Of a stretch of 19,421 nt of DNA, positions 1 through 16,772 are shown in pieces. The translations under genes and the position numbers were made by a program. This DNA is from a virus: UHGV virus genome UHGV-1602873; one strand, given 5' to 3'. The number at the start of each line of letters is the position of its first letter. The first letter of the stretch is position 1. The notes beneath the pieces are model-generated. The model was not told where the DNA came from, made no database searches, and saw only the letters and a program-made list of their open reading frames with translations.

Positions 1-15
1 TTTGTTGACTTCCAT
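1..15 (-). CDS. Start of a Nu1-like terminase small subunit gene (first 5 codons only; continues off the window)
   Basis: Reverse complement of 1-15 is ATGGAAGTCAACAAA (MEVNK), identical to the first codons of the Nu1 gene at 15379; upstream context (16-30) also matches the Nu1 ribosome-binding region of the second copy. Confidence 0.45.
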
Positions 16-240
16 TGTTCATTCCACGGACAAAAACAGAGAAAGGAAACGACAGAGGCCAAAATGCCCGTTTTCAGCGCCTGTCATTTCCTTTCTTTTC
101 AGGGGGTATTTTAAATAAAAACATAAAGTTACGGCGAAGAAGAACGGAAATGCCTTAAACCGGAAAATTTCCATAAATAGAGAAAAACTGCGCGCCTGAC
201 GCCCCGTAGCCTGTCAGATCGCCGGAAAGGACCCGCCAGC
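16..240. other. cos site of the island (cos2): cosB-like region, cosN-equivalent 12-mer at 193-204, cosQ-like flank 205-238
   Basis: Position-for-position alignable without gaps to 15380-15600 (the lambda-type cos); the 12-nt cohesive-end equivalent reads cgcctgacgccc versus aggtcgccgccc in cos1 (5 of 12 differ); flanking R-site-like blocks mostly conserved. Confidence 0.6.
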
Positions 241-260
241 CAGAGCGGGCCCTAATTTCA

Positions 261-644
261 TCAACCAATCAGCTTATAGCGACCATCCCGTGCATTGCGG
301 CGTACACGCTCAATCTTGAGGCATAGCGCCGCATCTGGCTTTTTTGGGACAGGTACGCGGCAATATTCAGAAGCGCGAGGAATATTATTTATCCAGTCGA
401 TCACTTCACTTAAATACCAGGCCTTACGCCCTTCCGTAACCTGCACACGCTCCGGGAACTCTCCACTAGCCTCAAGGTTTAGCAGTGTACGCCGACTCAG
501 GGTTGTAATTTCCATCACCTGATTCATATCAACAAGGCGCTCGCTTAAACACATTTTGTCAGCGATAGCTTTTAATTCCTCTACAGCTGGATTCGGGTAC
601 ATCATTTCGGCAATTGGCTTAAGGTCATTGTAATCATTCTGCAT
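261..644 (-). CDS. AlpA/Xis-family winged-helix DNA-binding protein (127 aa)
   Basis: Segment ITTLSRRTLLNLEASGEFPERVQVTEGRKAWYLSEVIDWI matches the AlpA/excisionase-like fold signature (GxFP, W..SEV..WI); strong SD (AAGGGGGA) 5 nt upstream; start follows the upstream stop codon within ~15 nt. Confidence 0.7.
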   Translation of the reverse strand: MQNDYNDLKPIAEMMYPNPAVEELKAIADKMCLSERLVDMNQVMEITTLSRRTLLNLEASGEFPERVQVTEGRKAWYLSEVIDWINNIPRASEYCRVPVPKKPDAALCLKIERVRRNARDGRYKLIG

Positions 645-655
645 TGTATCCCCCT

Positions 656-997
656 TTACACACGAGCCAGCGGCTGAACAGAAATACCTGAGCCAACAAA
701 TGCTGCAATCTTTACTGACAGTTCTTTTACAGACTCAGGCCAGTTCAGAGCATCAACATTTAAGACACCTGTCTTATAGACCTGAGCCTGTGTTTTTTTC
801 GCGGTGTCGATTTGTACAGCGGAAACATAAACCGCTTTACCTACGCTCGAACCATCCCATACCACCAGTGCACCTGTTGCATCTTCCTGCATCAGTGGCG
901 TAAATGCAGGAATTACCCCTTTATTAGCTGAAAATATCCCCAGCGTAGTCACCAGTGCTTCAGTGCCAGCCATGAGTTCAGTGTAATGAGTAGCCAT
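656..997 (-). CDS. Head decoration protein, lambda gpD family (113 aa)
   Basis: C-terminal half aligns with lambda D (LVVWDGSSVGKAV..YKTG..WPES..AAFVGSGISV versus [31 protein letters not shown]); divergent from the gpD at 9491-9823. Confidence 0.8.
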   Translation of the reverse strand: MATHYTELMAGTEALVTTLGIFSANKGVIPAFTPLMQEDATGALVVWDGSSVGKAVYVSAVQIDTAKKTQAQVYKTGVLNVDALNWPESVKELSVKIAAFVGSGISVQPLARV

Positions 998-1006
998 TGC
1001 TCCCCC

Positions 1007-2047
1007 TTAGCCAATGCGAACGGTAACAAAACGATTGATGCGGGCCGGTATTGGCTGTGGTGCTGAATGTGTCTGCACATATTCAATAGCCGGATCACCA
1101 GGCACAATATAGTTTTTCGGTGCAAGTTCGGCTTTAGTCAGCCCCATTCGGATTAGCTCCGGATCCTGAATACCGCCATAGGCGACAATCCCCTGAAGAG
1201 CCGTATTGCCAAGCACCATCAAATCAGGATCAAGGAAATGTTTTTCTGTTCCGTCCTCGTCGGTATAACGCCCGCTGTAAACAACAATCGCAACATCGCC
1301 CATATACCCTTTAAAACTCACCGAATCACCAAGGTCTTTAAGGGCCGTTTCCAGTTCGGAATTAGAACCACGACGGGTATCCAAAGCCTCTTTTATCGCT
1401 CTGAATGAACGGTATTTCTTCCATACATTACCACCCATAATGATGATATTAGTGACGCCCTCACTAAATTCTGCGTAGCTCTCAATATCATCATTTGGAT
1501 CAAAAGTTTCTTTATCCTTACCTGACCACTCAGTACCGCCAGACTGAGTGATGATATTTTGTGGTTTTATATTCCAGTCCAGCTCATAACGTTCAATACC
1601 ATCGCCCTCAATGATATTTTTCCCCGTTGTGATTGCCTGAACAGCAAGCCATTCAATACGTGCACGAATAGCTTTAGCCTGATTTACAATCGCCTGTTTA
1701 ACTTTAATATTACGCGCCCCAAAAGCATTGTATTGCTCAGGTGACACACCAGCAGGGCGCACAGCTAACTTATTTGGATCAATGCTGCTTTTCGGCTTCA
1801 TATAGCCTGGACGAATTGTTTTTGATTCGTACCCTTCGTCACGTGAAACTTTACTACCCACCATAGGAGAACAAAACGCTGCAATTGGGATATTTGGATC
1901 GTCGATTGTATCAAGAATAATATCGCGCGATTCAAACATTACCGAGCGAGTAAAAAACAAACTGGTAAACAACGCATTTAGTTGTTTTTGTACATCTACA
2001 GCATTAACTACCTGTACAAGCTGAGTAGGCGAATATAAATCAACCAT
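1007..2047 (-). CDS. Major capsid protein, lambda gpE family (346 aa from MVDLY start)
   Basis: Full-length homology to lambda E, strongest centrally (ITQSGGTEWS, DTRRGSNSELETA, GDVAIVVYSG, VLGNT); AAGAGGA SD upstream of ATG at 2047; the 71-codon N-terminal extension of the raw ORF is not used. Confidence 0.9.
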   Translation of the reverse strand: MVDLYSPTQLVQVVNAVDVQKQLNALFTSLFFTRSVMFESRDIILDTIDDPNIPIAAFCSPMVGSKVSRDEGYESKTIRPGYMKPKSSIDPNKLAVRPAGVSPEQYNAFGARNIKVKQAIVNQAKAIRARIEWLAVQAITTGKNIIEGDGIERYELDWNIKPQNIITQSGGTEWSGKDKETFDPNDDIESYAEFSEGVTNIIIMGGNVWKKYRSFRAIKEALDTRRGSNSELETALKDLGDSVSFKGYMGDVAIVVYSGRYTDEDGTEKHFLDPDLMVLGNTALQGIVAYGGIQDPELIRMGLTKAELAPKNYIVPGDPAIEYVQTHSAPQPIPARINRFVTVRIG

Positions 2048-2221
2048 ACGCATCCTCTTTGCATTCATTAAAAATAATTGTGGATATATGCTATCACCGA
2101 TATTTGTCATGCGAACACATGCAACCGAGTGCAATGTTGTATAAAGTTTTGGGGTGACAACTTCAGTGCGGACAATTAGTGTTAATATCTTCACTCCCTT
2201 TGGTCGGGATTTATGTAGCAT

Positions 2222-2252
2222 GCCGGAAAATTTATTTTTTCCGGCTTTTTTT
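2222..2252 (+). terminator. Intrinsic terminator oriented on the plus strand
   Basis: Perfect stem gccggaaaa/ttttccggc (2222-2245) with 6-nt loop, followed by ttttttt (2246-2252). The U-tract follows the hairpin only in the plus direction, antisense to the flanking genes. Confidence 0.6.
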
Positions 2253-2263
2253 ATTGGCAATAT

Positions 2264-2713
2264 TTAAAACGGGATATCATCTCCCCATTGCTCATTATCT
2301 CCCTCTGGTGGCTGGCTTCCTTGCTGATCTGCCTGTTGTTTTGCTCTGTTCAGTGCGTCAGTAGCCTGCCCCTGTTGGCCTTTTTTGCCGCCCGGTCGCA
2401 CCGATCGCGCACTGATTACGCTGTCTGCGATAACCTGCCAGCCCTGCCGCGTTTCGCCGTTCTGTCCAGTCCACTGGCTCATCTGCATGTTACCCGCCAC
2501 GCTCAGGAGTTCGCCTTTGTGATGCTTTGCCAGCGCGTCGGCTTGTCTGCCAAACGCCAGGACAGATAACCACAACGTCGCCAGACCGTCATCCGACTGA
2601 CTGCAGGGCAGTGATACCGCCATACGCGCCAGCGTCATGGGGGTGCCCTTGCTGGTCTGTTTTGTCTGCGGGTCGTCCACCAACCGCCCGTAAACTGATA
2701 TTTGCGCCGTCAT
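2264..2713 (-). CDS. ssb: Single-stranded DNA-binding protein (SSB)
   Basis: OB-fold-like N-terminus (ISVYGRLVDDPQ..., LSVLAFGRQADALAKHHKGELLSVAGNMQMSQWTGQNGETR), Gly/Gln-rich linker and C-terminal acidic tip ending DDIPF, as in E. coli SSB. Confidence 0.8.
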   Translation of the reverse strand: MTAQISVYGRLVDDPQTKQTSKGTPMTLARMAVSLPCSQSDDGLATLWLSVLAFGRQADALAKHHKGELLSVAGNMQMSQWTGQNGETRQGWQVIADSVISARSVRPGGKKGQQGQATDALNRAKQQADQQGSQPPEGDNEQWGDDIPF

Positions 2714-2967
2714 GCTGCCTGCTCTCCGGACTTAATATTGATTGTTGTCACTTCCTCCGCTTCAGCAATCTCCCGTTCGGTCAGCGTGGCAAAGTTTGCA
2801 GCCGCCGTTGTCATGAATGCGCTTATCAGTTCGGGATGTGCTTTCGCGTATCCTTCCCCGGCGTTGCGGTCTATTGCCTTAATCGCCACCCTTAGCCAGT
2901 GTTCAGCCATATCAAGGGCGCGGTAATGTGGCTTTATATGTTTGTTCAGTTTTCCTGATGTGTGCAT
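2710..2967 (-). CDS. Hypothetical small protein (85 aa; possible internal start giving ~66 aa)
   Basis: ORF overlapping the ssb start by 4 nt (coupled); no recognisable motif. Confidence 0.45.
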   Translation of the reverse strand: MHTSGKLNKHIKPHYRALDMAEHWLRVAIKAIDRNAGEGYAKAHPELISAFMTTAAANFATLTEREIAEAEEVTTINIKSGEQAA

Positions 2968-3012
2968 TTTTATTTTTACCCCCTCGTTTAAAAAGTTTTT
3001 TGTGCACCACCA

Positions 3013-3245
3013 CCTTGTCTACCTTGTCTACCTGATTAGTTATCAGGCCAGTAATGGCGCGGGTTTCAGGGAGGTAGACAGCCCCAAATAGCTGTCTACC
3101 TCATCTCTACCCGTCTCCTTACCTGTCTACAAAAATGGGTAGATAAGGTAGATAACAGGTAGACAGTGAAAAATAGTTATCTACCTGCATTAATACATTG
3201 AAATAAAAGTATTTTCTTTCAGTCAGGTAGACAAGGTAGATAACC
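3013..3245. repeat. Iteron array, putative replication origin
   Basis: At least 10 copies of GGTAGA(C/T)A(A/G) in both orientations: tandem ttgtctacc x2 (3015-3032); 12-bp perfect inverted repeat gaggtagacagc/gctgtctacctc (3071-3082, 3091-3102); ggtagataa x2 (3138-3155); caggtagacag (3157-3167); caggtagacaaggtagataacc (3224-3245); AT-rich stretch 3189-3222. Lies immediately 3' of the primase-helicase gene. Confidence 0.65.
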
Positions 3246-3256
3246 ATTGCCATTTT

Positions 3257-5008
3257 TTATAAAAACGCATCGCAATCATCAGTAGTCGTTGCGTTGGTCT
3301 GCGTGACTCCCTTAACTTTTCGCGTAATATATTCATATCCGTAAACTTTCGCCGCTGACCTCATAGCCTTTCCGAACTCATTCACGCTCAAACATTTCCC
3401 CTTTCCTGTGTATGCCATGAAGGCCATATAGACACGGTAAAGGCTGTTTCTGGTCGTGTACTTCACGGTGTCACCACCACCGCCCATCATTAGCCCACGA
3501 GCTTCCTCCAGAAACTCCAGCGCCGCGCAAAGCTCAACAACCGGATCCGTTTGCTGCTTTATTGCCAGAGCTTCATCACCGTCACGCTGTTCCAGTAATA
3601 AAGCCCGTGCCTTTTCAGGGTCAGCAAAATTAGCCAGCAAGCGGCGGATAATTACGGGGATTTCTGCCGCTATCTTTTCCGGTAATTCCTTGTCTTTTTC
3701 GTCCTCCCTTACAATGTTGTCGAACCGGAAAATCACCCGACGGCGTGACACACCTCCGGCCCGTTCGGTAAAGATCATCGGGTCGTTATTGGTTGCCAGT
3801 ACCACCGCTCTTATTATCGTCGTGAATCGCTTCTCATATTTCGGGTTAATTTCAACGGGATCGCCTCCCGTGATTTTCTTGATGCCCGTGCCTTCCCCCG
3901 TATATTTCGGCTGATCGGCAAGGACGATAAGACGACTCCCGACAACCTGCGCGCGCCCTCCTGCATCATCGAGTGATGTCATCTCCGCGCTTACGGTGTT
4001 CTGTTTGCCAGCAAGCAGGGTGGCAATATGGGTAAATGTACTCTTACCGCTTCCCCCGTCTCCGGTGGCCTCAATGAACATCTGCCAGTCGTAGCGGTTC
4101 GCCATAATCATGTATAACGCGGCACATATACGCATCATCTTGCGCGGGTCTTTTCTTGCAGCATGTTCAAGCCATTTATGGAAATTTGGCGCATTATCGC
4201 GGATGTTTTCCCCTGCTACTGGTGGCGTGTACTCAATGCCATTGTGCGTGGTGCTCCAGTGCTCCGGCGAGTGCGGAGAAAATTCCCCCGTTTTCAGGTT
4301 AAGCACACCATTAGTGAACGGTAGCAAATCACCGGACGGCTCCCCCATGGGGTCGGCAATAACTTTTAACGCTTCCACGGCGTTATTGATTACACGTTTG
4401 CTGAACGTGGCCCTGTGCTCTGAATAGATCGCCACCATTTCGCGGCTCAGCTCCATTGTGCTGACCGGACACCATACCCCGCCGCGCCATACGTGGACGA
4501 TTTCACTTTCTGCATGAACACACACACCATCAAAGCGATCGGCAAGTAGTTGTGCACGTTCACTGTCTGCCATCTGTGAAAGTTGCGCCTTTTGCTTCGT
4601 CGGAAGATTAAGCACCAGACTTTCCCCACGCTCGCATTCCTCTTTGAGTCGCGGCAACTGCTCGGATAAATCCACTGGGCTGGTGTCAGTAATCCCCGCG
4701 TATTCGTGTACGGTCTTCACTCCAGCCACAGCCAGTAACGTAACAATCTGCGTCATGCTGTGCTCTGTGATATGTCCTGCGCGGTAAACACGCACACACT
4801 GACGATCTTCATCAATGATCCGGTAATCGGTGATATTTTTCAGTTGCTCATCAGCCAGCACGACAGGCGGCACATCGTCAGCGGCAATATGTTTACCCGC
4901 CCATTCCCGCCACTCTTTCGCATGGCTCCACGCATCACTACCTGCAAAGATGATTACCTCTGTCAGTCTGTCGCGTGGCTGTTTTTTTAAGTTCGGTGCC
5001 AGTTTCAT
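3257..5008 (-). CDS. Replication initiation primase/helicase (phage/plasmid primase, D5/P4-alpha NTPase family), 583 aa
   Basis: Walker A GDGGSGKST, downstream hydrophobic-D motif (LIVLAD); size and position after int-alpA as in P4-like and PICI elements; SD AGGGG upstream of ATG at 5008. Confidence 0.85.
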   Translation of the reverse strand: MKLAPNLKKQPRDRLTEVIIFAGSDAWSHAKEWREWAGKHIAADDVPPVVLADEQLKNITDYRIIDEDRQCVRVYRAGHITEHSMTQIVTLLAVAGVKTVHEYAGITDTSPVDLSEQLPRLKEECERGESLVLNLPTKQKAQLSQMADSERAQLLADRFDGVCVHAESEIVHVWRGGVWCPVSTMELSREMVAIYSEHRATFSKRVINNAVEALKVIADPMGEPSGDLLPFTNGVLNLKTGEFSPHSPEHWSTTHNGIEYTPPVAGENIRDNAPNFHKWLEHAARKDPRKMMRICAALYMIMANRYDWQMFIEATGDGGSGKSTFTHIATLLAGKQNTVSAEMTSLDDAGGRAQVVGSRLIVLADQPKYTGEGTGIKKITGGDPVEINPKYEKRFTTIIRAVVLATNNDPMIFTERAGGVSRRRVIFRFDNIVREDEKDKELPEKIAAEIPVIIRRLLANFADPEKARALLLEQRDGDEALAIKQQTDPVVELCAALEFLEEARGLMMGGGGDTVKYTTRNSLYRVYMAFMAYTGKGKCLSVNEFGKAMRSAAKVYGYEYITRKVKGVTQTNATTTDDCDAFL

Positions 5009-5304
5009 TTTTTGCCCCTGAATGCGTTAATCATGCTTTTCATTTTCTGGATGTTTCCCCGCGCTTTTTCCCTGCTGATGGGCTTACTGCGGGGTGCGGC
5101 ATATACCAGGGAAAAATCACGCCGGAACTGATAAACAGGCATCACGCAGTCATAGCTATACCCCTCACGGCGGTAAGTGATGCGCCGTTCTGCCACGCCT
5201 TTAATCGTTACCGTGCCGCCGTATTTATCGCGGTAAATATCGCCGTTCATAAATTCAGGCCGAGCGGGGCCGCTGGCAATAAAGCCAGAATTTTTCATTT
5301 CCAT
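5005..5304 (-). CDS. Hypothetical protein (99 aa), translationally coupled to the primase
   Basis: GAGGAA SD; stop overlaps the primase ATG (ATGA overlap). Confidence 0.55.
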   Translation of the reverse strand: MEMKNSGFIASGPARPEFMNGDIYRDKYGGTVTIKGVAERRITYRREGYSYDCVMPVYQFRRDFSLVYAAPRSKPISREKARGNIQKMKSMINAFRGKK

Positions 5305-5321
5305 ATTATTTATTCCTCGAC

Positions 5322-5543
5322 TTAACTCGACTTATTTGATAGCAGGGCACTATTTATTGCGTCATTGAGTTTTTCTGCTGATTCATCAATAAGTGACAAC
5401 AGGCCATAAGCAATATTTGCATCTTCATTGTCATTTATGCAATCAAGCCACATATTTAATATTGCTTTTGCTGAATTATTTAAAGTTAATGAACTTTCTG
5501 CACATGCTAACAATTTAAAAAAGACTTCCCGTTCTGTATTCAT
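5322..5543 (-). CDS. Hypothetical small protein (73 aa)
   Basis: AT-rich ORF; start abuts the stop of the upstream gene. Confidence 0.45.
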   Translation of the reverse strand: MNTEREVFFKLLACAESSLTLNNSAKAILNMWLDCINDNEDANIAYGLLSLIDESAEKLNDAINSALLSNKSS

Positions 5544-5735
5544 TTAATCCCCCACCAGCTTACTTTCTTCCTCAATGAGGAAACTAGCGACACTTCCCGA
5601 AAGGCGCGCCAGTAGGCTCGCCAGCGCGGATATATCAGCATCTGTAATTTTGTTCGGATATACCTCAAGAAGGCGGCAAATAATTTCTGTCTGGTGCGCA
5701 CGTTCAGCGGCTTCGTGTAATGTGATTTCCTGCAT
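5544..5735 (-). CDS. Hypothetical small protein (63 aa)
   Basis: Start codon overlaps the stop of the upstream ORF by 1 nt. Confidence 0.45.
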   Translation of the reverse strand: MQEITLHEAAERAHQTEIICRLLEVYPNKITDADISALASLLARLSGSVASFLIEEESKLVGD

Positions 5736-5920
5736 TAATGCACCTCTTTTAATTCATACACTGCTGAAATAATGACTTGTGATAAGCCATATTCTGATGA
5801 TTCGCTTCTCACCGCAGCAATAGCCGTCTGAACATTAACAGCCTTCACATTCTGAGCGATACCAATTGTGTGGCCTATTGGGTTAACAGCTCGGGCAAAT
5901 ACACGGAAGGTTTTAAGCAT
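5735..5920 (-). CDS. Hypothetical small protein (61 aa), first gene of the operon leading to the primase
   Basis: GGGAG SD 6 nt upstream of ATG; competes with a plus-strand ORF starting at 5919, so the call is tentative. Confidence 0.4.
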   Translation of the reverse strand: MLKTFRVFARAVNPIGHTIGIAQNVKAVNVQTAIAAVRSESSEYGLSQVIISAVYELKEVH

Positions 5921-6201
5921 GACTCACTCCCTGGCGGATTTTTGCAGCGAATACAGCAACACAACCGGACGGGCAACGGCTACGCGCTTCGCGTTCCGTC
6001 CAGGCGGTTACGTGGATGATTTGAGATTCTCCGGCACTCAGTGCCAGAAAACGCCACACAAAGGCCGTTTGTGTGTGTACAAGGTGTGGTATATGATTTA
6101 CAGCAACCATAACGGCTCCTAGTTTACGTTGTTGGTTAGACGCCCCGTATGTGTTCCCAGCACTGCGGGGCGTTGCTCTTTGTATTTCAACAATCCTTTC
6201 G

Positions 6202-6279
6202 GTGTGTTTCATGTTATGAGCGCATGAAACACACGTCAAGGCTTTTTGTATTTCTTTTTTTGTGTATACTGAAACACAC
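6202..6279. promoter_or_regulatory. Operator-like repeats overlapping a leftward sigma70-like promoter in a divergent control region
   Basis: 12-bp perfect inverted repeat gtgtgtttcatg/catgaaacacac (6202-6213, 6223-6234) plus a third copy gaaacacac (6271-6279). On the minus strand, TTGACG (6234-6239), 17-bp spacer, TAACAT (6211-6216) form a promoter whose -10 and spacer sit inside the repeats. Confidence 0.5.
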
Positions 6280-6300
6280 CGATGATTAGGAGTTTCAGAA

Positions 6301-6606
6301 ATGGCAACGGCTAACAAAAACGCAAAATCACAACTGACAACTGTCAGAGTCCCACTAGATGTTATGCAAGGGATGGAATCCGTTAAGCTGGACGGTGAAA
6401 GCAATGCCGGATTTATCGTAACCGCCATGCGCGGTGAAATCGCCCGCCGCCAGGCAGAAGGAAGCGGAGAAAATCCCCTCGTGTCTTCACTGGATGCCTT
6501 AGCTAAGGTCGAACAAATCGGTATCAAGGCAGCGGAGGAAATCGGGCAACTCGTAGCCGTCGCTCGTGAAGAACTCCAGCGGCGTAAAGCCAAAGAATCT
6601 GAATAA
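6301..6606 (+). CDS. Hypothetical protein, candidate regulator (101 aa)
   Basis: AGGAG SD 8 nt upstream; charged helical C-terminus; transcribed divergently from the small-gene/primase operon, next to the operator repeats. Function not recognised. Confidence 0.6.
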   Translation: MATANKNAKSQLTTVRVPLDVMQGMESVKLDGESNAGFIVTAMRGEIARRQAEGSGENPLVSSLDALAKVEQIGIKAAEEIGQLVAVAREELQRRKAKESE

Positions 6607-6956
6607 TTAGTATCAGCGCCGTGATGTGAGTAACTACGGCGCATTGCTATGTAAATACTGGCAATAAACAGAAAAGGTAGTTCTACTCCGAATAATTTTA
6701 TCTGACACTACTCCTGAACTAACATGCGCTTATCTTACAGGATATAAATATAAATCCATAAAATCACGATTAAATAAAGTCGCTCCAAACATAAACCACA
6801 CCCAACGCTTAACAAGATAGCAACAAACAGGTAAATAACTTGCAGAAATATTTATCGCAAGGATTATCATTATTAATGACAAATCACTTTACCAAGTCAT
6901 TCCCCTCTCTTATCATAAAGAGAAAGTAATAAATAAGTTAAGGGAGTTAGAATGCT

Positions 6957-7493
6957 ATGAATCTAAAAAAAATAGCCACAAACACAAAAAACAAGATAAC
7001 AGAAACATTTAATAAACTTATATTAGAGGCATCTAAAACCCCCACACAAGATGAAATTAAAATACTTGAGAGAAGGAGTAAGAAGTTTAATTACTCCTTT
7101 TTCTCATACGCAGTCACAGGAGCTATAATAGTTTTTTGCTCTCAACCATTAATTAAATACGCAAACCCAATACTTATTTTATTGAGTGGTCTGTTACTGT
7201 CTATCATCATTATCATTCTCAGAATGATTTATATTTCACAAGCGAATGCATCATGGACAACCAAAAAACGCTCACATGTACTAGTTCATTTTCTTTCTGC
7301 ATGTTTCATAGCATCAACATTGACGTTGCTATATCAGGCTTACGATAATAACATCACACACAAATTGTACTGTAAAAATATACAACAACTTATTGAAAAA
7401 AGGATAGAGACAGAAAAAAACATCAGCATATTCAGTGGGATGCAATGCACCCCGGTATATGATTACTCTTTATTTGGATTTAATCTCTTATAA
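6957..7493 (+). CDS. Small membrane protein (178 aa, about three predicted transmembrane segments) in an AT-rich cargo segment
   Basis: Hydrophobic stretches FFSYAVTGAIIVFCSQPLI, ILILLSGLLLSIIIIILRMIYI, VLVHFLSACFIASTLTLLY; AGGGAG SD; Lys/Asn/Ile-rich codon usage unlike its neighbours. Confidence 0.6.
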   Translation: MNLKKIATNTKNKITETFNKLILEASKTPTQDEIKILERRSKKFNYSFFSYAVTGAIIVFCSQPLIKYANPILILLSGLLLSIIIIILRMIYISQANASWTTKKRSHVLVHFLSACFIASTLTLLYQAYDNNITHKLYCKNIQQLIEKRIETEKNISIFSGMQCTPVYDYSLFGFNLL

Positions 7494-7502
7494 AGAATGT
7501 TA

Positions 7503-7536
7503 TTACTGATTTGAGTACAAATTCTCAAATCAGTAA
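7503..7536. terminator. Hairpin between convergent genes (membrane protein and alpA), likely bidirectional terminator
   Basis: Perfect 13-bp inverted repeat ttactgatttgag/ctcaaatcagtaa with 8-nt loop, flanked by T/A-rich sequence on both sides. Confidence 0.55.
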
Positions 7537-7562
7537 TTCATAATATTTTATTCTGAGATAAT

Positions 7563-7799
7563 TTAAACTACCCACTCACCTCGAATCCATGCCTGCACTT
7601 CTGAAAGACGATATGCAACAGCAGTGGAACCAATCTTGATCCGCTTAGGAAATTTTCCTTCCTTCTCCAGCTTCCAGCGTGTGCTGTTCGCAAGAGTGGT
7701 TAGCTCCCGACATTCTTTCTCACGGATCATTCGGTCAATGTTAGGAATGTACTCCAGACCCTTTTTATCAACAATTGCCATTTTTTTCATGTTAACCAA
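7563..7799 (-). CDS. alpA: AlpA-family transcriptional regulator/excisionase-like protein (78 aa)
   Basis: Signature LEYIPNIDRMIREKECRELTTLANSTRWKLEKEGKFPKRIKIGSTAVAYRLSEVQAWI; overlaps the integrase stop by 8 nt. Confidence 0.85.
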   Translation of the reverse strand: MVNMKKMAIVDKKGLEYIPNIDRMIREKECRELTTLANSTRWKLEKEGKFPKRIKIGSTAVAYRLSEVQAWIRGEWVV

Positions 7800-9027
7800 C
7801 CTTTTGTTTGAGGATTGTCACTTTTGAATCAGCACCTGCGATGCTATTGAGATATGTAGTCCAGAGTTCCAGAGCATCCAGTTTTTTAGCCATAAACTTA
7901 CTCCGGTTGTAAACACCTGCCACGCCAGGTAGCGCATGGCCTAACAGTTGTTCTACTACATAAAATTCAACACCGAGATCACTTAGATGAGTAGATAGCG
8001 TTCTTCTAAGGTCGTGTAGTGACCATTGTTTTTCATGGCCCAAACGTTTACCGATTTTCCCCCCAATCTTGCTTACGCTTTCTCTAATTCGCAGACTTCC
8101 CAGCACATAACCAGTATGTTTTGTCTCTTCGTGAACATCCGTTACCCACTGTCGTAGAATTTCAGGTACTGGTCTGACGATTTCAACACCAGTTTTTGAG
8201 TGATCTTTTGGTACAGTCCAAACCCAACTTTCGAGATCCCATTCGCTCCATTCTGATAATCGGGCTTCACTCATTCGACATCCAAATACTGTACAAAGCA
8301 CAAACATTTTTCGCGTGTATTCAGACATTAGTTTTAAATCAGGCTCGACAAAAATTGCCTTCCAGAGCTGGCCGAGTTCGGCTTCATCCAGAACCCGATC
8401 CCGCTTACCTGCAATCTGCCCCACATCACTCATGCGCAAATCCTTTAAAGCATCACACGTCGCGTACTGGCGTACCCGACAAAAACGAAGAGCTAATTTA
8501 GTGTCAGAAAAAACATACGCCGCCATAACTGGTGCATTACGTTTAATTCGGTCAAAACAGTCCAGCCATTCATATAGGTGAGTGTCATTTACGGGCAAAT
8601 GACCGATATAGGGAAAGATATGCTTTCGAAATCTGCCAAGCGTTACAGCATGAGTTTTACGACGCACCTTACAGTAATTTTCATACCAGTAATTTAGTGC
8701 ATCCTCCACTGTAACCGGCTTTAAGCGTTCTTCAGCCTGAATCTTAATCTGGATACGCGGATCACGTTTGTCAGCCAACCAACCACGGCACTCGTCGCGC
8801 TTTTCCCTTGCCTGTTTGAGTGACATATCAGGATATTTACCCAACGTTAGCCAGACCGGAGCAGCCCGGCCACCTGCTAACCTGTAGAAGAAAACAAAGC
8901 TCACAGCCCCTTTAGTACTCACACGAATAGAAAGCCCCTTTCCATCAGCAATGGTGATCTGCTTTTCTCTGGGTTTCCCCAGATATCCTTTAAGCGCTTT
9001 GTCGCTCAGTTTGTTCTCGCCAGCCAT
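7792..9027 (-). CDS. int: Tyrosine site-specific integrase, P4 family (start chosen at MAGENK; raw ORF extends to 9078)
   Basis: N-terminal arm-binding-like region (KALKGYLGKPREKQITIADGKGLSIRVS...), catalytic box HDLRRT and C-terminal tyrosine in GVAGVYNRS. Confidence 0.9.
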   Translation of the reverse strand: MAGENKLSDKALKGYLGKPREKQITIADGKGLSIRVSTKGAVSFVFFYRLAGGRAAPVWLTLGKYPDMSLKQAREKRDECRGWLADKRDPRIQIKIQAEERLKPVTVEDALNYWYENYCKVRRKTHAVTLGRFRKHIFPYIGHLPVNDTHLYEWLDCFDRIKRNAPVMAAYVFSDTKLALRFCRVRQYATCDALKDLRMSDVGQIAGKRDRVLDEAELGQLWKAIFVEPDLKLMSEYTRKMFVLCTVFGCRMSEARLSEWSEWDLESWVWTVPKDHSKTGVEIVRPVPEILRQWVTDVHEETKHTGYVLGSLRIRESVSKIGGKIGKRLGHEKQWSLHDLRRTLSTHLSDLGVEFYVVEQLLGHALPGVAGVYNRSKFMAKKLDALELWTTYLNSIAGADSKVTILKQKVG

Positions 9028-9159
9028 TTTTAGCCCCAAAAAGCAATACAAGCTGCAATACAGAGATGATTGCAACACACAGATAACGAGGAAAATTCAG
9101 TGAAAGCACCAGATAAACTTATTCTTTATTATCAAAAGATTAAGTGTAAAAACCAGCAA

Positions 9160-9435
9160 CTACACGAAAGCCTCAGAAAGCCATGCTAAGTGCTTGGGTT
9201 TGACATATCCCGGCGTAAATTCAGAGGTGGAGCCGCCACGGGAACGGATAACCTCACCGGAAACAATCGGCGAAACGTACAGCGCCATGTTTACCAGTCC
9301 CGGAATTTGTGAGAGATAGACTTTCTCCGTGGTGAAGGGATAGCTCTCACGGAAAAAGAGACGCAGAAACAGCGGATCAAACTTAAATTTCTGCTCATTT
9401 GCCGCCAGCAGCTGGGCGGTTGTGTACATCGACAT
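9160..9435 (-). pseudogene. E: Truncated lambda-type major capsid gene E (first ~82 codons, then 9 unrelated codons and a stop)
   Basis: MSMYTTAQLLAANEQKFKFDPLFLRLFF...TPGYVKPKH matches the lambda gpE N-terminus as recalled; the frame then reads LAWLSEAFV-stop at ~9190-9160, next to the integrase gene. Confidence 0.85.
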
Positions 9436-9490: not shown

Positions 9491-9823
9491 TTAAACGATG
9501 CTGATTGCCGTTCCGGCAAACGCGGTCCGTTTTTTCGTCTCGTCGCTGGCAGCCTCCGGCCAGAGCACATCCTCATAACGGAACGTGCCGGACTTGTAGA
9601 ACGTCAGCGTGGTGCTGGTCTGGTCAGCATCAACCGCCAGAATGCCAACGGCAGTACCGTCGGTGGTGCCATCCCACGCAACCAGCTTACGGGTGGAGGT
9701 GTCCAGCATCAGCGGGGTCATTGCAGGCGCTTTCGCACTCAATCCGCCGGGCGCGGTTGCCGTATGTGCCGGGTCACTGTTGCCCAGCGGCTGGTAATGG
9801 GTAAAGGTTTCTTTGCTCGTCAT
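9491..9823 (-). CDS. D: Head decoration protein gpD (110 aa)
   Basis: Near-identical to lambda D as recalled ([12 protein letters not shown]...GTAISIV). Confidence 0.9.
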
Positions 9824-9832
9824 AAACATCCC

Positions 9833-10438
9833 TTACACTGGTGTGTTCAGCAAATCGTTAACGGCATCAGATGCCGGGTTACCTGCAGCCAGTGGTGCCG
9901 GTGCCCCCTGCATCAGACGATCCAGCGCAGTGTCACTGCGCGCCTGTGCACTCTGTGGTGCAGCTGCCAGAATGCGGCGGGCCGTTTCCACGGTCATACC
10001 GGGGGTTTCGGCCAGCACACGTGCCTGTTCTTCTCGTCCGTGAGCTTCCTCACAGTTGAGGATCCCCATAATGCGGCTGTTTTCTGCCGCAACCGCAGCG
10101 GTGATCTGCGCGTTCACGTCCGGCTGCGCCGCGCTGGCGTTTTCGCCCTCCGTCGCTTGCACCACGTCAGTAACGTCAGCCTGCGAAGCAGTGGTTGAAA
10201 CAGTTGTTGATTGAGTCTCTTTGGTCATTCGCCCTCCTGAGAGACGGGATTTACGTGCATCCAGTGCATCACGCATAACGGTGATCGCATCGGTGCTGTT
10301 GACAAGTTCATCAGCCAGTCCGGCATCAATGGCCTCCTGACCGCTGTACACTGCAGCCTCGGTATCCAGCACAGCCTGCACGGACAGGCCGGTATATGCC
10401 GACACCTTCTGCGCAAACATCCGGCGGGTTGCATCCAT
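9833..10438 (-). CDS. nu3: Capsid scaffolding protein Nu3 (in frame with and sharing the C-terminus of gpC)
   Basis: Internal ATG (MDATRRMFAQ...) giving 201 aa, the same nested arrangement as lambda Nu3 within C. Confidence 0.7.
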   Translation of the reverse strand: MDATRRMFAQKVSAYTGLSVQAVLDTEAAVYSGQEAIDAGLADELVNSTDAITVMRDALDARKSRLSGGRMTKETQSTTVSTTASQADVTDVVQATEGENASAAQPDVNAQITAAVAAENSRIMGILNCEEAHGREEQARVLAETPGMTVETARRILAAAPQSAQARSDTALDRLMQGAPAPLAAGNPASDAVNDLLNTPV

Positions 10439-11132
10439 CCGGGACTGCAGTGTCTCCCGGACATCACCCGGTAGATGGCTGTAGGGGTTGCCATCCACCT
10501 TATGGCTGCCGCTGTAAATCAGCGTGATTTCCACGCCCTGTTTCTCCAGCGCAGCGCCGTAATTACTGTGAGCCATCATGACGCCGATGGAGCCTGTCCG
10601 GGCGGTCTGCGTGACCAGACGCCGGGAGGCGGCGCTGGCAAGCAGCTGACCTGCACTGCAGTTCATGTCGTTGGCCAGCGCCCATACCGGCTTTATGTCA
10701 CGCACACGGGCGATGATGTCAGCACAGTCAAATGCTCCCGCCACCATCCCGCCCGGTGTGTCCATATCGAGCAGAATGCCGTCCACCATCGGATCGCTGG
10801 CAGCCTGTTGCAGACGGGCGATAATGCCGTTGTAACCGGTCATCCCCGAATACGGCTGCAGCGCCCGCGTCCGGCTGACCAGCGTGCCGGACACCGGCAG
10901 CACGGCGATGCCGTTCATGACCTGATAACTGCGGGCCTGTCGTGGTCCGTCATCATCAACGGATAACGCCAGCGCCGCGGGTGCCTCTCCGGCAGTCAGG
11001 CTGTCGCCGGACACCGCATCCGTCAGGCGGCTGATCCCAAGCTGGCCTGCAAGCGCACAAAAGAAAACCCGCGCATAGGCGGGTTCAAGCATCAGCGGCT
11101 CATTAAAGGCCATACTGGCAATATGCGGGAGA

Positions 11133-11152
<20 letters not shown>
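9833..11152 (-). CDS. C: Head protease/scaffold gpC (439 aa, GTG start)
   Basis: Starts VTAELRNLPHIASMAFNEPLMLEPAYARVFF with GTG at 11150-11152 preceded by GGAGGAG; the raw ORF's upstream extension is rejected; overlaps the end of B as in lambda. Confidence 0.9.
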
Positions 11153-14833
<3,681 letters not shown>

Positions 14834-14859
<26 letters not shown>

Positions 14860-15379
14860 TCAGCAACCCCGGTATCAGTTCATCCAGCGCGGCTGCTTTG
14901 TTCATGGCTTTGATAATATCCCGTTTCAGGAAATCAACATGTCGGTTTTCCAGTTCCGGAAAACGCCGCTGCACCGACAGGGGGATCCCGTCGAGAATAC
15001 TGGCAATTTCACCTGCGATCCGCGACAACACGAAAGTACAGAATGCGGTTTCCACCACTTCAGCGGAGTCTCTGGCATTCTTCAGTTCCTGTGCGTCGGC
15101 CTGCGCACGCGTAAGTCGATGGCGTTCGTACTCAATAGTCCCTGGCTGGAGATCTGCCTCGCTGACCTGCCGCAGTTCTTCAACCTCCCGGCGCAGCTTT
15201 TCGTTCTCAATTTCAGCATCCCTTTCGGCATACCATTTTATGACGGCGGCAGAGTCATAAAGCACCTCATTACCCTTGCCACCGCCTCGCAGAACGGGCA
15301 TTCCCTGTTCCTGCCAGTTCTGAATGGTACGGATACTCGCACCGAAAATGTCAGCCAGCTGCTTTTTGTTGACTTCCAT
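14834..15379 (-). CDS. nu1: Terminase small subunit Nu1 (181 aa)
   Basis: MEVNKKQLADIFGASIRTIQNWQEQGMPVLRGGGKGNEVLYDSAAVIKWYAERD... matches lambda Nu1. Confidence 0.95.
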
Positions 15380-15767: not shown

Positions 15768-16001
15768 ATGTCAACGAAGAACAGAACCCGCAGAACAACA
15801 ACCCGCAACATCCGCTTTCCTAACCAAATGATTGAACAAATTAACATCGCTCTTGAGCAAAAAGGGTCCGGGAATTTCTCAGCCTGGGTCATTGAAGCCT
15901 GCCGCCGGAGACTGTGCTCAGAAAAAAGAGTTTCTCCTGAAGCAAACAAAGAAAAGAGTGACATTACTGAATTGCTCAGAAAACAGATCAGACCAGATTG
16001 A
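15768..16001 (+). CDS. Small basic protein, possible ribbon-helix-helix DNA-binding protein (77 aa)
   Basis: Arg-rich N-terminus followed by NIRFPNQMIEQINIALEQKG (RHH-like pattern); no strong SD, so tentative. Confidence 0.45.
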   Translation: MSTKNRTRRTTTRNIRFPNQMIEQINIALEQKGSGNFSAWVIEACRRRLCSEKRVSPEANKEKSDITELLRKQIRPD

Positions 16002-16059
16002 AGCAATTTAGATAATCGTGCAGACTACGCCCCCCTCATATCACATGGAAGGTTTATCT

Positions 16060-16470
16060 ATGGATCAGGTAGTCATTTTTAAACAAATATTTGATAAAGT
16101 TCGAAACGATTTAAACTATCAATGGTTTTATTCTGAGCTAAAACGTCACAATGTCTCACATTACATTTACTATTTAGCCACAGAGAATGTTCATATTGTA
16201 TTAAAAAATGATAATACAGTGTTATTAAAGGGCCTAAAAAACATTGTGTCTGTCAAATTTTCAAAGGATAGGCATCTTATAGAAACGACCTCTAATAAGC
16301 TGAAATCCAGAGAGATCACATTTCAGGAATACAGAAGAAACCTTGCTAAAGCAGGAGTTTTTCGGTGGGTTACAAATATCCACGAACAAAAAAGATATTA
16401 CTATACCTTTGATAATTCATTACTCTTTACTGAAAACATACAGAGCACATCACAAATGTTTCCACACTAA
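16060..16470 (+). CDS. YbcV-like prophage protein (DUF1398 family), 136 aa from MDQVV start
   Basis: Resembles YbcV-type proteins of lambdoid prophages from memory; GGAAGG SD 8 nt upstream of ATG at 16060; AT-rich gene opposite in orientation to the lysis genes. Confidence 0.55.
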
Positions 16471-16772
16471 ACCATAACGTCCGGTTTCTTCTACCCCTGC
16501 ACCGGACTGGCTGACATGAAGAGCAACCCCGCGTTCAGTTGACGCGTTAATAACCCGGTGTGCATCGTTTTTGATTATTCCCGCACACTCACGCAGAAGG
16601 AATTCCCCGTCGGGCTACGGTCATGGTTAATGCGGGAATACGGCGACGATACAGCGCATGATGTGTCAGGCTTGAATACCTTTATCCGTTAAAAGGGATA
16701 TCAGTTAAGTTATCCCGTGCAGGGTATAAGCCATTATCAAGCCCCCCGTAGATAGGCTTTGTAATGACATCT

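Follow-up and report, generated by a model that had tools for sequence, protein, structure and literature searches.

A rare three-transmembrane protein gene in a variable cargo hotspot of a helper-embedded phage satellite

The cargo slot and its gene

The virus genome UHGV-1602873 was analyzed over a stretch of 19,421 nucleotides (nt), referred to here as the window. We focus on a single gene (6957-7493, plus strand) that encodes a 178-amino-acid (aa) protein with three transmembrane (TM) segments and that occupies a variable, low-GC slot in a phage satellite. The satellite is a helper-embedded phage-inducible chromosomal island (HE-PICI) located inside the lambda-E-like major-capsid gene of a lambdoid prophage and co-oriented with that gene. 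Its minus strand carries a tyrosine integrase, then a co-oriented alpA gene, and then a primase, which is the order by which HE-PICIs are recognized. This type of element is already known, since HE-PICIs at the same site (E:Phage_cap_E) have been described together with their Integration (int and AlpA), dynamic "Bro," Replication, and Late zones (Tommasini, Mageeney & Williams 2023; PMC10111431). The three-TM gene falls exactly in the dynamic zone. Accessory genes of PICIs sit between the regulation and replication modules (PMC10085698). The features of the slot and its borders are as follows.

6301-6606, plus strand: YlcI/YnfO-family gene, 101 aa, the conserved left flank, upstream of and co-oriented with the three-TM gene (NCBIfam YlcI_YnfO_N, 2.7e-17; phrog_6522, 5e-64)
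6616-6642, plus strand: hairpin just past the stop codon of the ylcI-like gene, at the left edge of the slot (fold of -17.2 kcal/mol, z = -1.95, not significant)
6649-7570, no strand assigned: variable low-GC cargo slot (the "dynamic/Bro zone" of HE-PICIs) between the YlcI/YnfO-like gene and alpA, delimited by homology breaks, GC content, and alternative cargos
6888-6916, plus strand: candidate sigma-70-like promoter, TTTACC-17-TATCAT, ∼40 nt before the start codon (9/12 in a consensus scan)
6942-6946, plus strand: Shine-Dalgarno-like GGGAG, 10 nt before the ATG (read from the sequence)
6957-7493, plus strand: gene for the 178-aa three-TM membrane protein, RefSeq WP_001049528.1, "hypothetical protein" (open reading frame and RefSeq)
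7502-7537, no strand assigned: hairpin with a 14-bp stem between the stop codons of the three-TM gene and alpA, a candidate bidirectional terminator (fold and consensus scan)
7563-7799, minus strand: alpA, the conserved right flank (Pfam Phage_AlpA, 3.1e-15)
7792-9078, minus strand: HE-PICI tyrosine integrase (Pfam Arm-DNA-bind_3 and Phage_integrase)

The slot is set apart by its base composition. The GC fraction is 0.31-0.34 in each 300-nt interval from 6601 to 7650, and the GC content of 6649-7570 is 30.7%, versus 47.7% at 1-6648 and 44.9% at 7571-9100 (alpA-int). A preliminary description of this DNA had noted an AT-rich segment at 6620-7560. The trough is present, but its boundaries shift, because alignments to other Escherichia coli islands stop at ∼6648-6651 and restart at ∼7571-7584, just inside the 3′ end of alpA. 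The natural unit is therefore ∼6649-7570. It contains a single substantial real gene, which begins with an ATG and is convergent with the minus-strand alpA, as had been described. The product is rich in Ile (13.5%), Lys (9.0%), and Asn (6.7%), again in agreement with the earlier reading, as well as in Leu (12.4%), and the GC content at third codon positions is 0.31, compared with 0.40-0.63 in neighboring genes.

The gene had also been said to end in a hairpin terminator, which is correct in part. The hairpin at 7502-7537 is strong: As RNA it folds with -21.2 kcal/mol on the plus strand (z = -4.9) and -18.2 kcal/mol on the minus strand (z = -3.9), and 0 of 200 shuffled sequences fold equally well. 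However, the consensus scan scores this hairpin as a terminator on the minus (alpA) strand only. Since the plus-strand T-run begins 8 nt past the stem, the three-TM gene does not have a canonical intrinsic terminator in this hairpin. No immunity RNA (C4 or isrK) or any other Rfam RNA was detected in the 340-nt spacer upstream of the gene or elsewhere in the window, and searches for repeats and operators in 6600-7000 returned short, chance-level matches only.

The slot is a hotspot for alternative cargos

Window positions 5700-8700 were compared by megablast with 5426 complete E. coli genomes. Matches were obtained in 1330 genomes, and in just 44 of these did they cover at least 80% of the query. 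The alignment breakpoints are reproducible, at query positions 949-952 and 1872-1885. Other E. coli islands hold different cargo in the slot, namely a gene for a TIR protein (locus L004), genes for DUF2971 and SWIM proteins (L003), a 241-aa gene without an assigned family (L002, where a HicB-annotated gene replaces the ylcI-like gene), or a gene for a BRO-N protein (L005; NZ_CP011416.1, 5241-8406), the last in an island whose insertion site is a portal gene of a prophage. This sister island in L005 has the same ylcI-like and replication genes and a different integrase. The three-TM gene itself is the cargo in 68 of the 5426 genomes, always in the chromosome.

We also fetched 68 IMG/VR loci that have the same integrase (86%-100% identity) and clustered the DNA that follows alpA. 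Among the 66 loci that were usable, 19 slot types can be distinguished, with GC fractions of 0.27-0.37 and one or two genes each, in either orientation. The cargos include known or candidate defense genes: PD-T7-1 (PADLOC, 1.3e-153; L042, 6062-7408), PDC-S35 with a CAP12/Pycsar-type TIR domain (7e-67; Pfam, 1e-33; L041, 6053-6925), a putAbiC protein (Pfam, 2.8e-16; L038, 1779-2459), an HNH effector-like protein (PDC-M68A, 5e-28; L074, 6038-7126), and DUF3800 and DUF5677 proteins. DUF2971 and SWIM proteins are also encoded. The three-TM gene is the commonest cargo (20 of 66 loci), and two further slot types carry a homolog with 32%-35% identity together with a second gene. Thus, the slot is a hotspot in which conserved flanks enclose many alternative inserts, including known or candidate defense systems. 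The preliminary description had raised both a variable hotspot and its opposite, an invariant core gene; the 19 cargo types in 66 related elements, together with the limited occurrence of the gene among them and in E. coli genomes, speak for the first and against the second.

Comparable organization has been reported for the P4 satellite hotspot (2022; PMC9122126), which likewise has conserved flanks and low-GC variable inserts of one or two genes that include both known and unknown anti-phage systems. The hotspot described here differs in that it belongs to an HE-PICI with ylcI-like and alpA flanks, and the three-TM protein is not among the PADLOC models. The island also matches the published HE-PICI plan in its int and AlpA genes, its dynamic zone, its primase and single-stranded DNA-binding protein (SSB) genes, and its captured late genes (its own capsid and decoration genes). 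In contrast to the published zone, which is dominated by Bro-N network proteins and immunity RNAs (PMC10111431), the slot has no Bro gene and no C4 or isrK RNA. The HE-PICI element and the dynamic zone behind alpA (PMC10111431), as well as the placement of PICI accessory genes (PMC10085698), are already known; that an HE-PICI zone carries bona fide defense genes appears to be new.

Some observations concern the sister cargos and the left border. For at least eight other sister cargos (180-467 aa), neither PADLOC nor Pfam gives a match, and these could be unexplored defense candidates. A small YlcI/YnfO- or HicB-like gene that points into the slot borders at least 13 of the 19 slot types; its product is 101 aa here and ∼60-71 aa elsewhere. 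This bordering gene may supply transcription for the cargos. Beyond the ylcI-like gene, L074 carries an additional gene (7515-8216) for a 234-aa multi-TM, Cys-rich protein that is unrelated in sequence to the three-TM protein.

A rare protein family

Relatives of the three-TM protein are scarce. A word-indexed search of 5.8 billion proteins returned E. coli alleles at ≥88% identity only, and phmmer, run exhaustively against 1.84 billion representatives, yielded 11 hits (E ≤ 1e-3), of which five are full-length relatives (27%-36% identity, 165-175 aa, E values from 1e-13 to 3e-19). A profile search adds a few members, including Pseudomonas proteins, for a total of ∼20 clusters; homologs in other genera have 23%-36% identity and similar length. 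In the GTDB, with one genome per species (185,579 genomes), three loci were found, in Kosakonia, in Pantoea, and in a metagenome-assembled genome, and the JGI metagenomes contributed one distant locus. For plasmids, tblastn gave one marginal Pantoea match only. The accession WP_001049528.1 was not found in the literature corpus searched, and the family, which is rare and previously undescribed, appears to be new. None of the homologs is a housekeeping membrane protein, an origin that the preliminary description had considered.

An alignment of 17 sequences reveals invariant residues F48, P64, P71, C139, Q143, F159, and C164, and nearly invariant K67 and G78. Two motifs stand out. The first, QPLLK(Y/F)xNP, lies between TM1 and TM2. 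The second, C..LQ....EK...F...C(R/Q), is in the C-terminal domain and takes the form HDxYC..LQ....EKNSxIFxNMxCR in enterobacterial members. None of the Pfam families is matched consistently by the members. DUF443 (PF04276) was rejected, since its score of 19.2 bits compares with a cutoff of 26.2 and only the two E. coli alleles of the 17 members match it. No holin or colicin-immunity model is present among the 25 most frequent of the 27 Pfam families matched (E ≤ 0.1) by the 17 members. The protein is divided as follows.

7089-7142, plus strand: TM1, aa 45-62 (hydropathy; helix 31-61 of the AlphaFold 2 [AF2] model; hydrophobic in 17 of 17 family members)
7143-7166, plus strand: loop 1, QPLIKYAN(P), between TM1 and TM2, with invariant P64 and P71 and near-invariant K67; predicted to be periplasmic (alignments, positive-inside rule)
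7167-7235, plus strand: TM2, aa 71-93 (hydropathy, AF2, family)
7272-7343, plus strand: TM3, aa 106-129 (hydropathy, AF2, family)
7344-7490, plus strand: C-terminal soluble domain of ∼49 aa with invariant C139 (7371-7373), Q143, F159, and C164 (7446-7448); predicted to be periplasmic and to contain a disulfide bond (invariant columns)

The three hydrophobic segments recognized in the preliminary description agree with the AlphaFold model built from the family alignment, which has helices at 31-61, 71-94, and 103-147 and a pLDDT (predicted local distance difference test) score of 84. The C-terminal domain is the part of the model with the highest confidence (block pLDDT 94-95). Charges are unevenly distributed along the protein. 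The N-terminal segment is Lys/Arg-rich in enterobacterial members (+11/-5 in the window protein), and the TM2-TM3 loop is short and net positive across the family (+2 to +5 with 0 acidic residues in enterobacterial members). The C-terminal domain, which holds the invariant cysteine pair, is charge-balanced. When the positive-inside rule is applied to this family charge pattern, the protein is predicted to have a cytoplasmic N terminus (N-in), three TM segments, and a periplasmic loop 1 and C-terminal domain. Most invariant positions would then be located on the periplasmic face of the membrane, and in the periplasm a disulfide bond between C139 and C164 is plausible.

Allelic variation and selection

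The two main E. coli alleles of the gene are 88%-89% identical in protein sequence and differ almost solely in one segment.

7194-7310, plus strand: mosaic patch, codons 80-118, which extends from the end of TM2 through the cytoplasmic loop into the first part of TM3 (allele comparison)

There are ∼39 nt differences between the alleles over 1.2 kb, and 34 of these are inside positions 7150-7350. Within the patch, the rates of synonymous (dS) and nonsynonymous (dN) substitution are 0.47 and 0.43. The remaining 139 codons (1-79 and 119-178) have six synonymous and no nonsynonymous changes (dN = 0), which indicates strong purifying selection at both ends of the protein. The pattern of differences suggests that the patch was likely imported by recombination from a more distant allele. 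For milder alleles, dN/dS over the whole gene is 0.09-0.27. The reading frame is intact in 32 of the 32 loci that carry E. coli alleles.

Genomic contexts of homologs

In the same 32 loci, the three-TM gene is always linked to a ylcI-like gene (92%-100% identity), alpA (100%), and int (100%). This ylcI-to-int block is joined to at least three replication modules, with primase identities of 48%, 88%-92%, or 97%-100% and Icd identities of 49%-52% or 100%. In a Kosakonia locus and a metagenomic satellite, a homolog occupies the same slot on the same strand as a small ylcI-like gene and 29-66 nt after it, and a second, unrelated cargo gene precedes alpA. The short same-strand spacing suggests that the homolog is cotranscribed with the ylcI-like gene. 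A DUF3950 match of the small ylcI-like gene was found in L028 only. A neighbor in that locus scored as RT_II-A (PADLOC, E = 0.003) was rejected, as Pfam does not confirm the assignment even at E ≤ 1.

Homologs also reside in other settings. In a lambdoid prophage, a low-GC homolog is antisense in the head-gene operon, between a Mu-F-like gene and other head genes. The Pantoea homolog is in a low-GC islet after the type VI secretion system (T6SS) genes tssF-tssG-tssJ and before a gene for an HNH protein, and one Pseudomonas homolog is ∼3 kb from an S-type pyocin gene (L030). The other contexts are islets rich in ORFans. At all nine of nine loci, the GC content of the homolog is below that of its surroundings, which agrees with the earlier view of the gene as horizontally acquired cargo. 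Because no partner gene is conserved, we regard the gene as a stand-alone mobile module.

The most conspicuous neighbor is in P. mandelii, where the homolog lies 49 nt downstream from the gene for a retron type XI reverse transcriptase (RT)-protease (PADLOC, 1.4e-174), in an islet with genes for Fic and DUF4238 proteins. Three close relatives of this RT (64%-81% identity) have other genes or nothing at the position of the homolog, and the RT-protease family has >4400 members, versus ∼20 clusters for the three-TM family (>200 times larger). RT-Protease_XI adjoins a homolog in one of ∼10 contexts, and there is no RT in the window. Since the adjacency is not recurrent and the RT family is far larger, the homolog is a defense-island neighbor of the retron rather than a component of it, and a general role of the protein as retron effector or component was rejected. 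The position after the type XI RT-protease is variable in Pseudomonas: L029 (P. mandelii, 6303-7952) has the homolog, and L111 (5090-7122), whose RT is 81% identical, has TIR_2 and LD_cluster2.

Possible functions of the three-TM protein

The explanation that we tentatively favor is that the gene encodes an anti-phage membrane protein that would be expressed during lysogeny and would most likely act in superinfection exclusion (Sie). Context and topology underlie this proposal. Exclusion fits best because the gene lies in a defense hotspot, its homologs are found in moron and defense-island contexts, it stands alone, and its conservation is concentrated on the predicted periplasmic face. The broader claim of any anti-phage role, whether exclusion or abortive infection (Abi), is somewhat probable. 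We consider it rather doubtful that the protein belongs to a new family of phage-exclusion factors, each encoded by a single gene and facing the periplasm from the inner membrane, which helper-embedded satellites and now and then prophages and defense islands would carry, and that the HE-PICI dynamic zone is an unrecognized defense hotspot that could be mined for more systems.

If the protein excludes phages, then a simple mechanism can be envisioned. The gene runs counter both to the satellite operon driven by alpA and to the late operon of the helper that hosts the satellite, and would be closed off by the hairpin. We infer from this opposition to late transcription that expression occurs in the quiescent (uninduced) lysogen. 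Transcription could originate from the candidate promoter of the gene or from the upstream ylcI-like gene, which is divergent from the satellite operon and has the three-TM gene downstream in the same orientation. The resulting 178-aa protein would comprise a Lys-rich cytoplasmic N-terminal helix, three TM segments, a periplasmic QPLxKYxNP loop, and a periplasmic domain of ∼50 residues with the cysteine pair. The protein might act at the periplasmic face of the inner membrane, where the disulfide-bonded C-terminal domain and the loop could intercept the genome-delivery machinery of incoming phages and block genome entry. Such exclusion would shield the helper-satellite composite from competitor phages.

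The best point of comparison is the SieA protein of phage P22. Both are hydrophobic multi-TM proteins of similar size (164 aa for SieA versus 178 aa), and each is encoded by a single gene that is antisense to a late operon on a temperate element. The sieA gene has an annotated promoter of its own and lies antisense directly after late gene 16, whereas the three-TM gene has a candidate promoter only. The two proteins have no sequence relationship, and SieA does not have the conserved periplasmic domain with a cysteine pair.

Several results count against exclusion. Homology to SieA was rejected (hhalign probability 0.13%, E = 0.45). No homolog was found by tblastn in 50,697 isolated phage genomes. 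Neither the protein nor any of its 16 homologs could be placed credibly in a family of Pfam, PADLOC, PHROGs, or NCBIfam (for the protein itself, no PHROGs family at E ≤ 0.01), and in the libraries searched there is no homology to a known defense, Sie, Abi, holin, or immunity family. A sequence search of the PDB with the family profile yielded nothing at E ≤ 1, and fold searches yielded generic helical matches only. The earlier statement that no known domain is recognizable thus holds after profile and structure searches. The promoter candidate is weak evidence, since the region has nine such sites versus 5.3 expected, and the topology and the disulfide bond are themselves predictions. Not all slot cargos are defense genes, given that BRO-N and HicB-like genes are also present, and the published account of the zone puts its emphasis on regulators and immunity RNAs (PMC10111431).

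Should phage exclusion prove to be its role, the gene would enlarge the defense catalog by a small system that consists of one membrane protein of a new family and fold. The zone next to alpA in HE-PICIs would then serve as a defense hotspot, whose uncharacterized cargos could be screened, and the finding would be relevant to the protection that a satellite gives to the helper prophage in which it resides. If there is no phage phenotype, then the gene would be an ordinary orphan moron.

An unlikely alternative, which nonetheless survives better than the others, is that the protein is an abortive-infection membrane effector. It would stay inert up to the moment when a phage product binds to it or infection disturbs the envelope; it would then oligomerize, collapse the membrane potential, and kill the cell before phage release. 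RexB-type proteins and the two-TM (2TM) effectors of retron, CBASS, and Pycsar systems are analogs, and like retron Ec48-type 2TM effectors, CBASS/Pycsar effectors, and RexB, the three-TM protein is a small helical membrane protein found in defense neighborhoods. The defense-hotspot and defense-island contexts suit this explanation as well as they suit exclusion, some of the slot neighbors are of the Abi type (putAbiC, TIR), and one of the 17 family members faintly matches a SAVED-fused 2TM effector domain (E = 0.038). However, this match is at noise level and no significant profile match exists. Conservation is on the predicted periplasmic face and not on a cytoplasmic sensor surface. The gene is solitary, since the window contains neither a sensor nor an RT that could be its partner; the retron adjacency is not recurrent, and its product has three TM segments plus an ordered, presumably periplasmic domain.

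Slightly less likely still is a hitchhiker without phage function, either an accessory of host physiology or virulence or a decaying remnant. The extreme rarity of the family (11 matches in 1.84 billion proteins and three in 185,579 species genomes) is in keeping with this idea, and lambdoid prophages carry nondefense morons such as iss/bor nearby. Against it stand the strong purifying selection on the N- and C-terminal parts of the protein, the conservation of length, topology, and motifs across Enterobacterales and Pseudomonas, and the intact reading frame in all 32 loci.

It is improbable that the gene is fitness cargo for an orphan immunity protein against a membrane-targeting toxin, such as a pore-forming colicin or pyocin or a T6SS or contact-dependent inhibition ionophore. 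Immunity proteins for pore-forming colicins (Cai/Cbi) are ∼110-180 aa, have several TM segments, and are encoded by AT-rich genes that are often antisense to their neighbors, a size and layout that the three-TM protein resembles. The homologs after tssF-tssG-tssJ in Pantoea and near the pyocin gene in Pseudomonas have suggestive positions, and a conserved periplasmic face would be well placed to intercept a toxin on its way in. However, no family member matches colicin, microcin, or T6SS immunity families in Pfam, no cognate toxin gene is adjacent in the loci examined, and the family resides chiefly in satellites and a prophage, where anti-phage genes make up the other cargo, rather than on colicin plasmids. 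The L030 pyocin moreover has a Cytotoxic (nuclease-type) domain and is directly followed by its own small gene.

Least probable of all is a function in the satellite life cycle, as a holin- or antiholin-like modulator of lysis timing or as interference with the helper that favors satellite transfer: A small three-TM protein would make sense on a satellite that depends on helper lysis, and the gene is both the cargo most often found alongside this integrase (20 of 66) and part of an int-alpA-ylcI linkage that persists across at least three replication modules, but it points against the transcription driven by alpA and the late transcription of the helper, is set apart by the hairpin, is absent from 70% of sister elements (which carry unrelated genes), has no Pfam holin match, has homologs in nonsatellite chromosomal islets, and would adopt an N-in/C-out topology, the opposite of lambda-S-type class I holins.

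Other genes of the satellite and its helper prophage

The island occupies window positions 1-9190 and is followed by a capsid-gene fragment (∼9190-9435) and prophage head genes (9491-15379). On the minus strand, the order is int, alpA, the slot, the Icd-like gene with three small open reading frames (ORFs), DUF4222, primase, SSB, capsid, decoration, and an excisionase-like helix-turn-helix (HTH) gene. The genes beyond the slot are as follows.

5322-6110, minus strand: Icd-like gene and three small ORFs (family matches)
Between this group and the primase, minus strand: DUF4222 protein gene
3257-5008, minus strand: D5-type primase, then SSB
1007-2260, minus strand: the island's own HK97-fold major capsid gene
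656-997, minus strand: the island's own head-decoration gene
261-644, minus strand: excisionase-like HTH gene

A 243-aa minus-strand ORF at 5913-6644 is a long-open-frame artifact: Its matches to phage families are confined to the final ∼65 codons (Icd-like, 5913-6110), and the real gene in the overlap is the YlcI/YnfO-like one on the plus strand (6301-6606). E. coli strain 104 (NZ_CP029164) contains a region that is 99.9% identical, in which RefSeq has two halves of a prophage major-capsid gene that flank the island, with a capsid pseudogene fragment annotated directly beyond the integrase. Next on this strand come the decoration, S49 protease, portal, terminase, nohD, and lysis genes of the prophage. 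The same arrangement recurs in L002-L004.

The helper prophage has its own ylcI (∼15768-16001). Between its packaging and lysis regions is a second low-GC patch (GC 0.31-0.36, window positions 15900-16500) with a 150-aa ORF (16018-16470), whose sole match is at noise level (Csx23, E = 0.016). RefSeq places iss nearby in strain 104; the product of this ORF is presumably distinct from Iss in sequence. At the far end of the island in strain 104, just past the left end of the window (L001, 3419-5135), a DUF262 gene is followed by a HEPN-domain gene. This pair looks like a second defense-like cargo site (GmrSD-like/HEPN) at the opposite end of the satellite.

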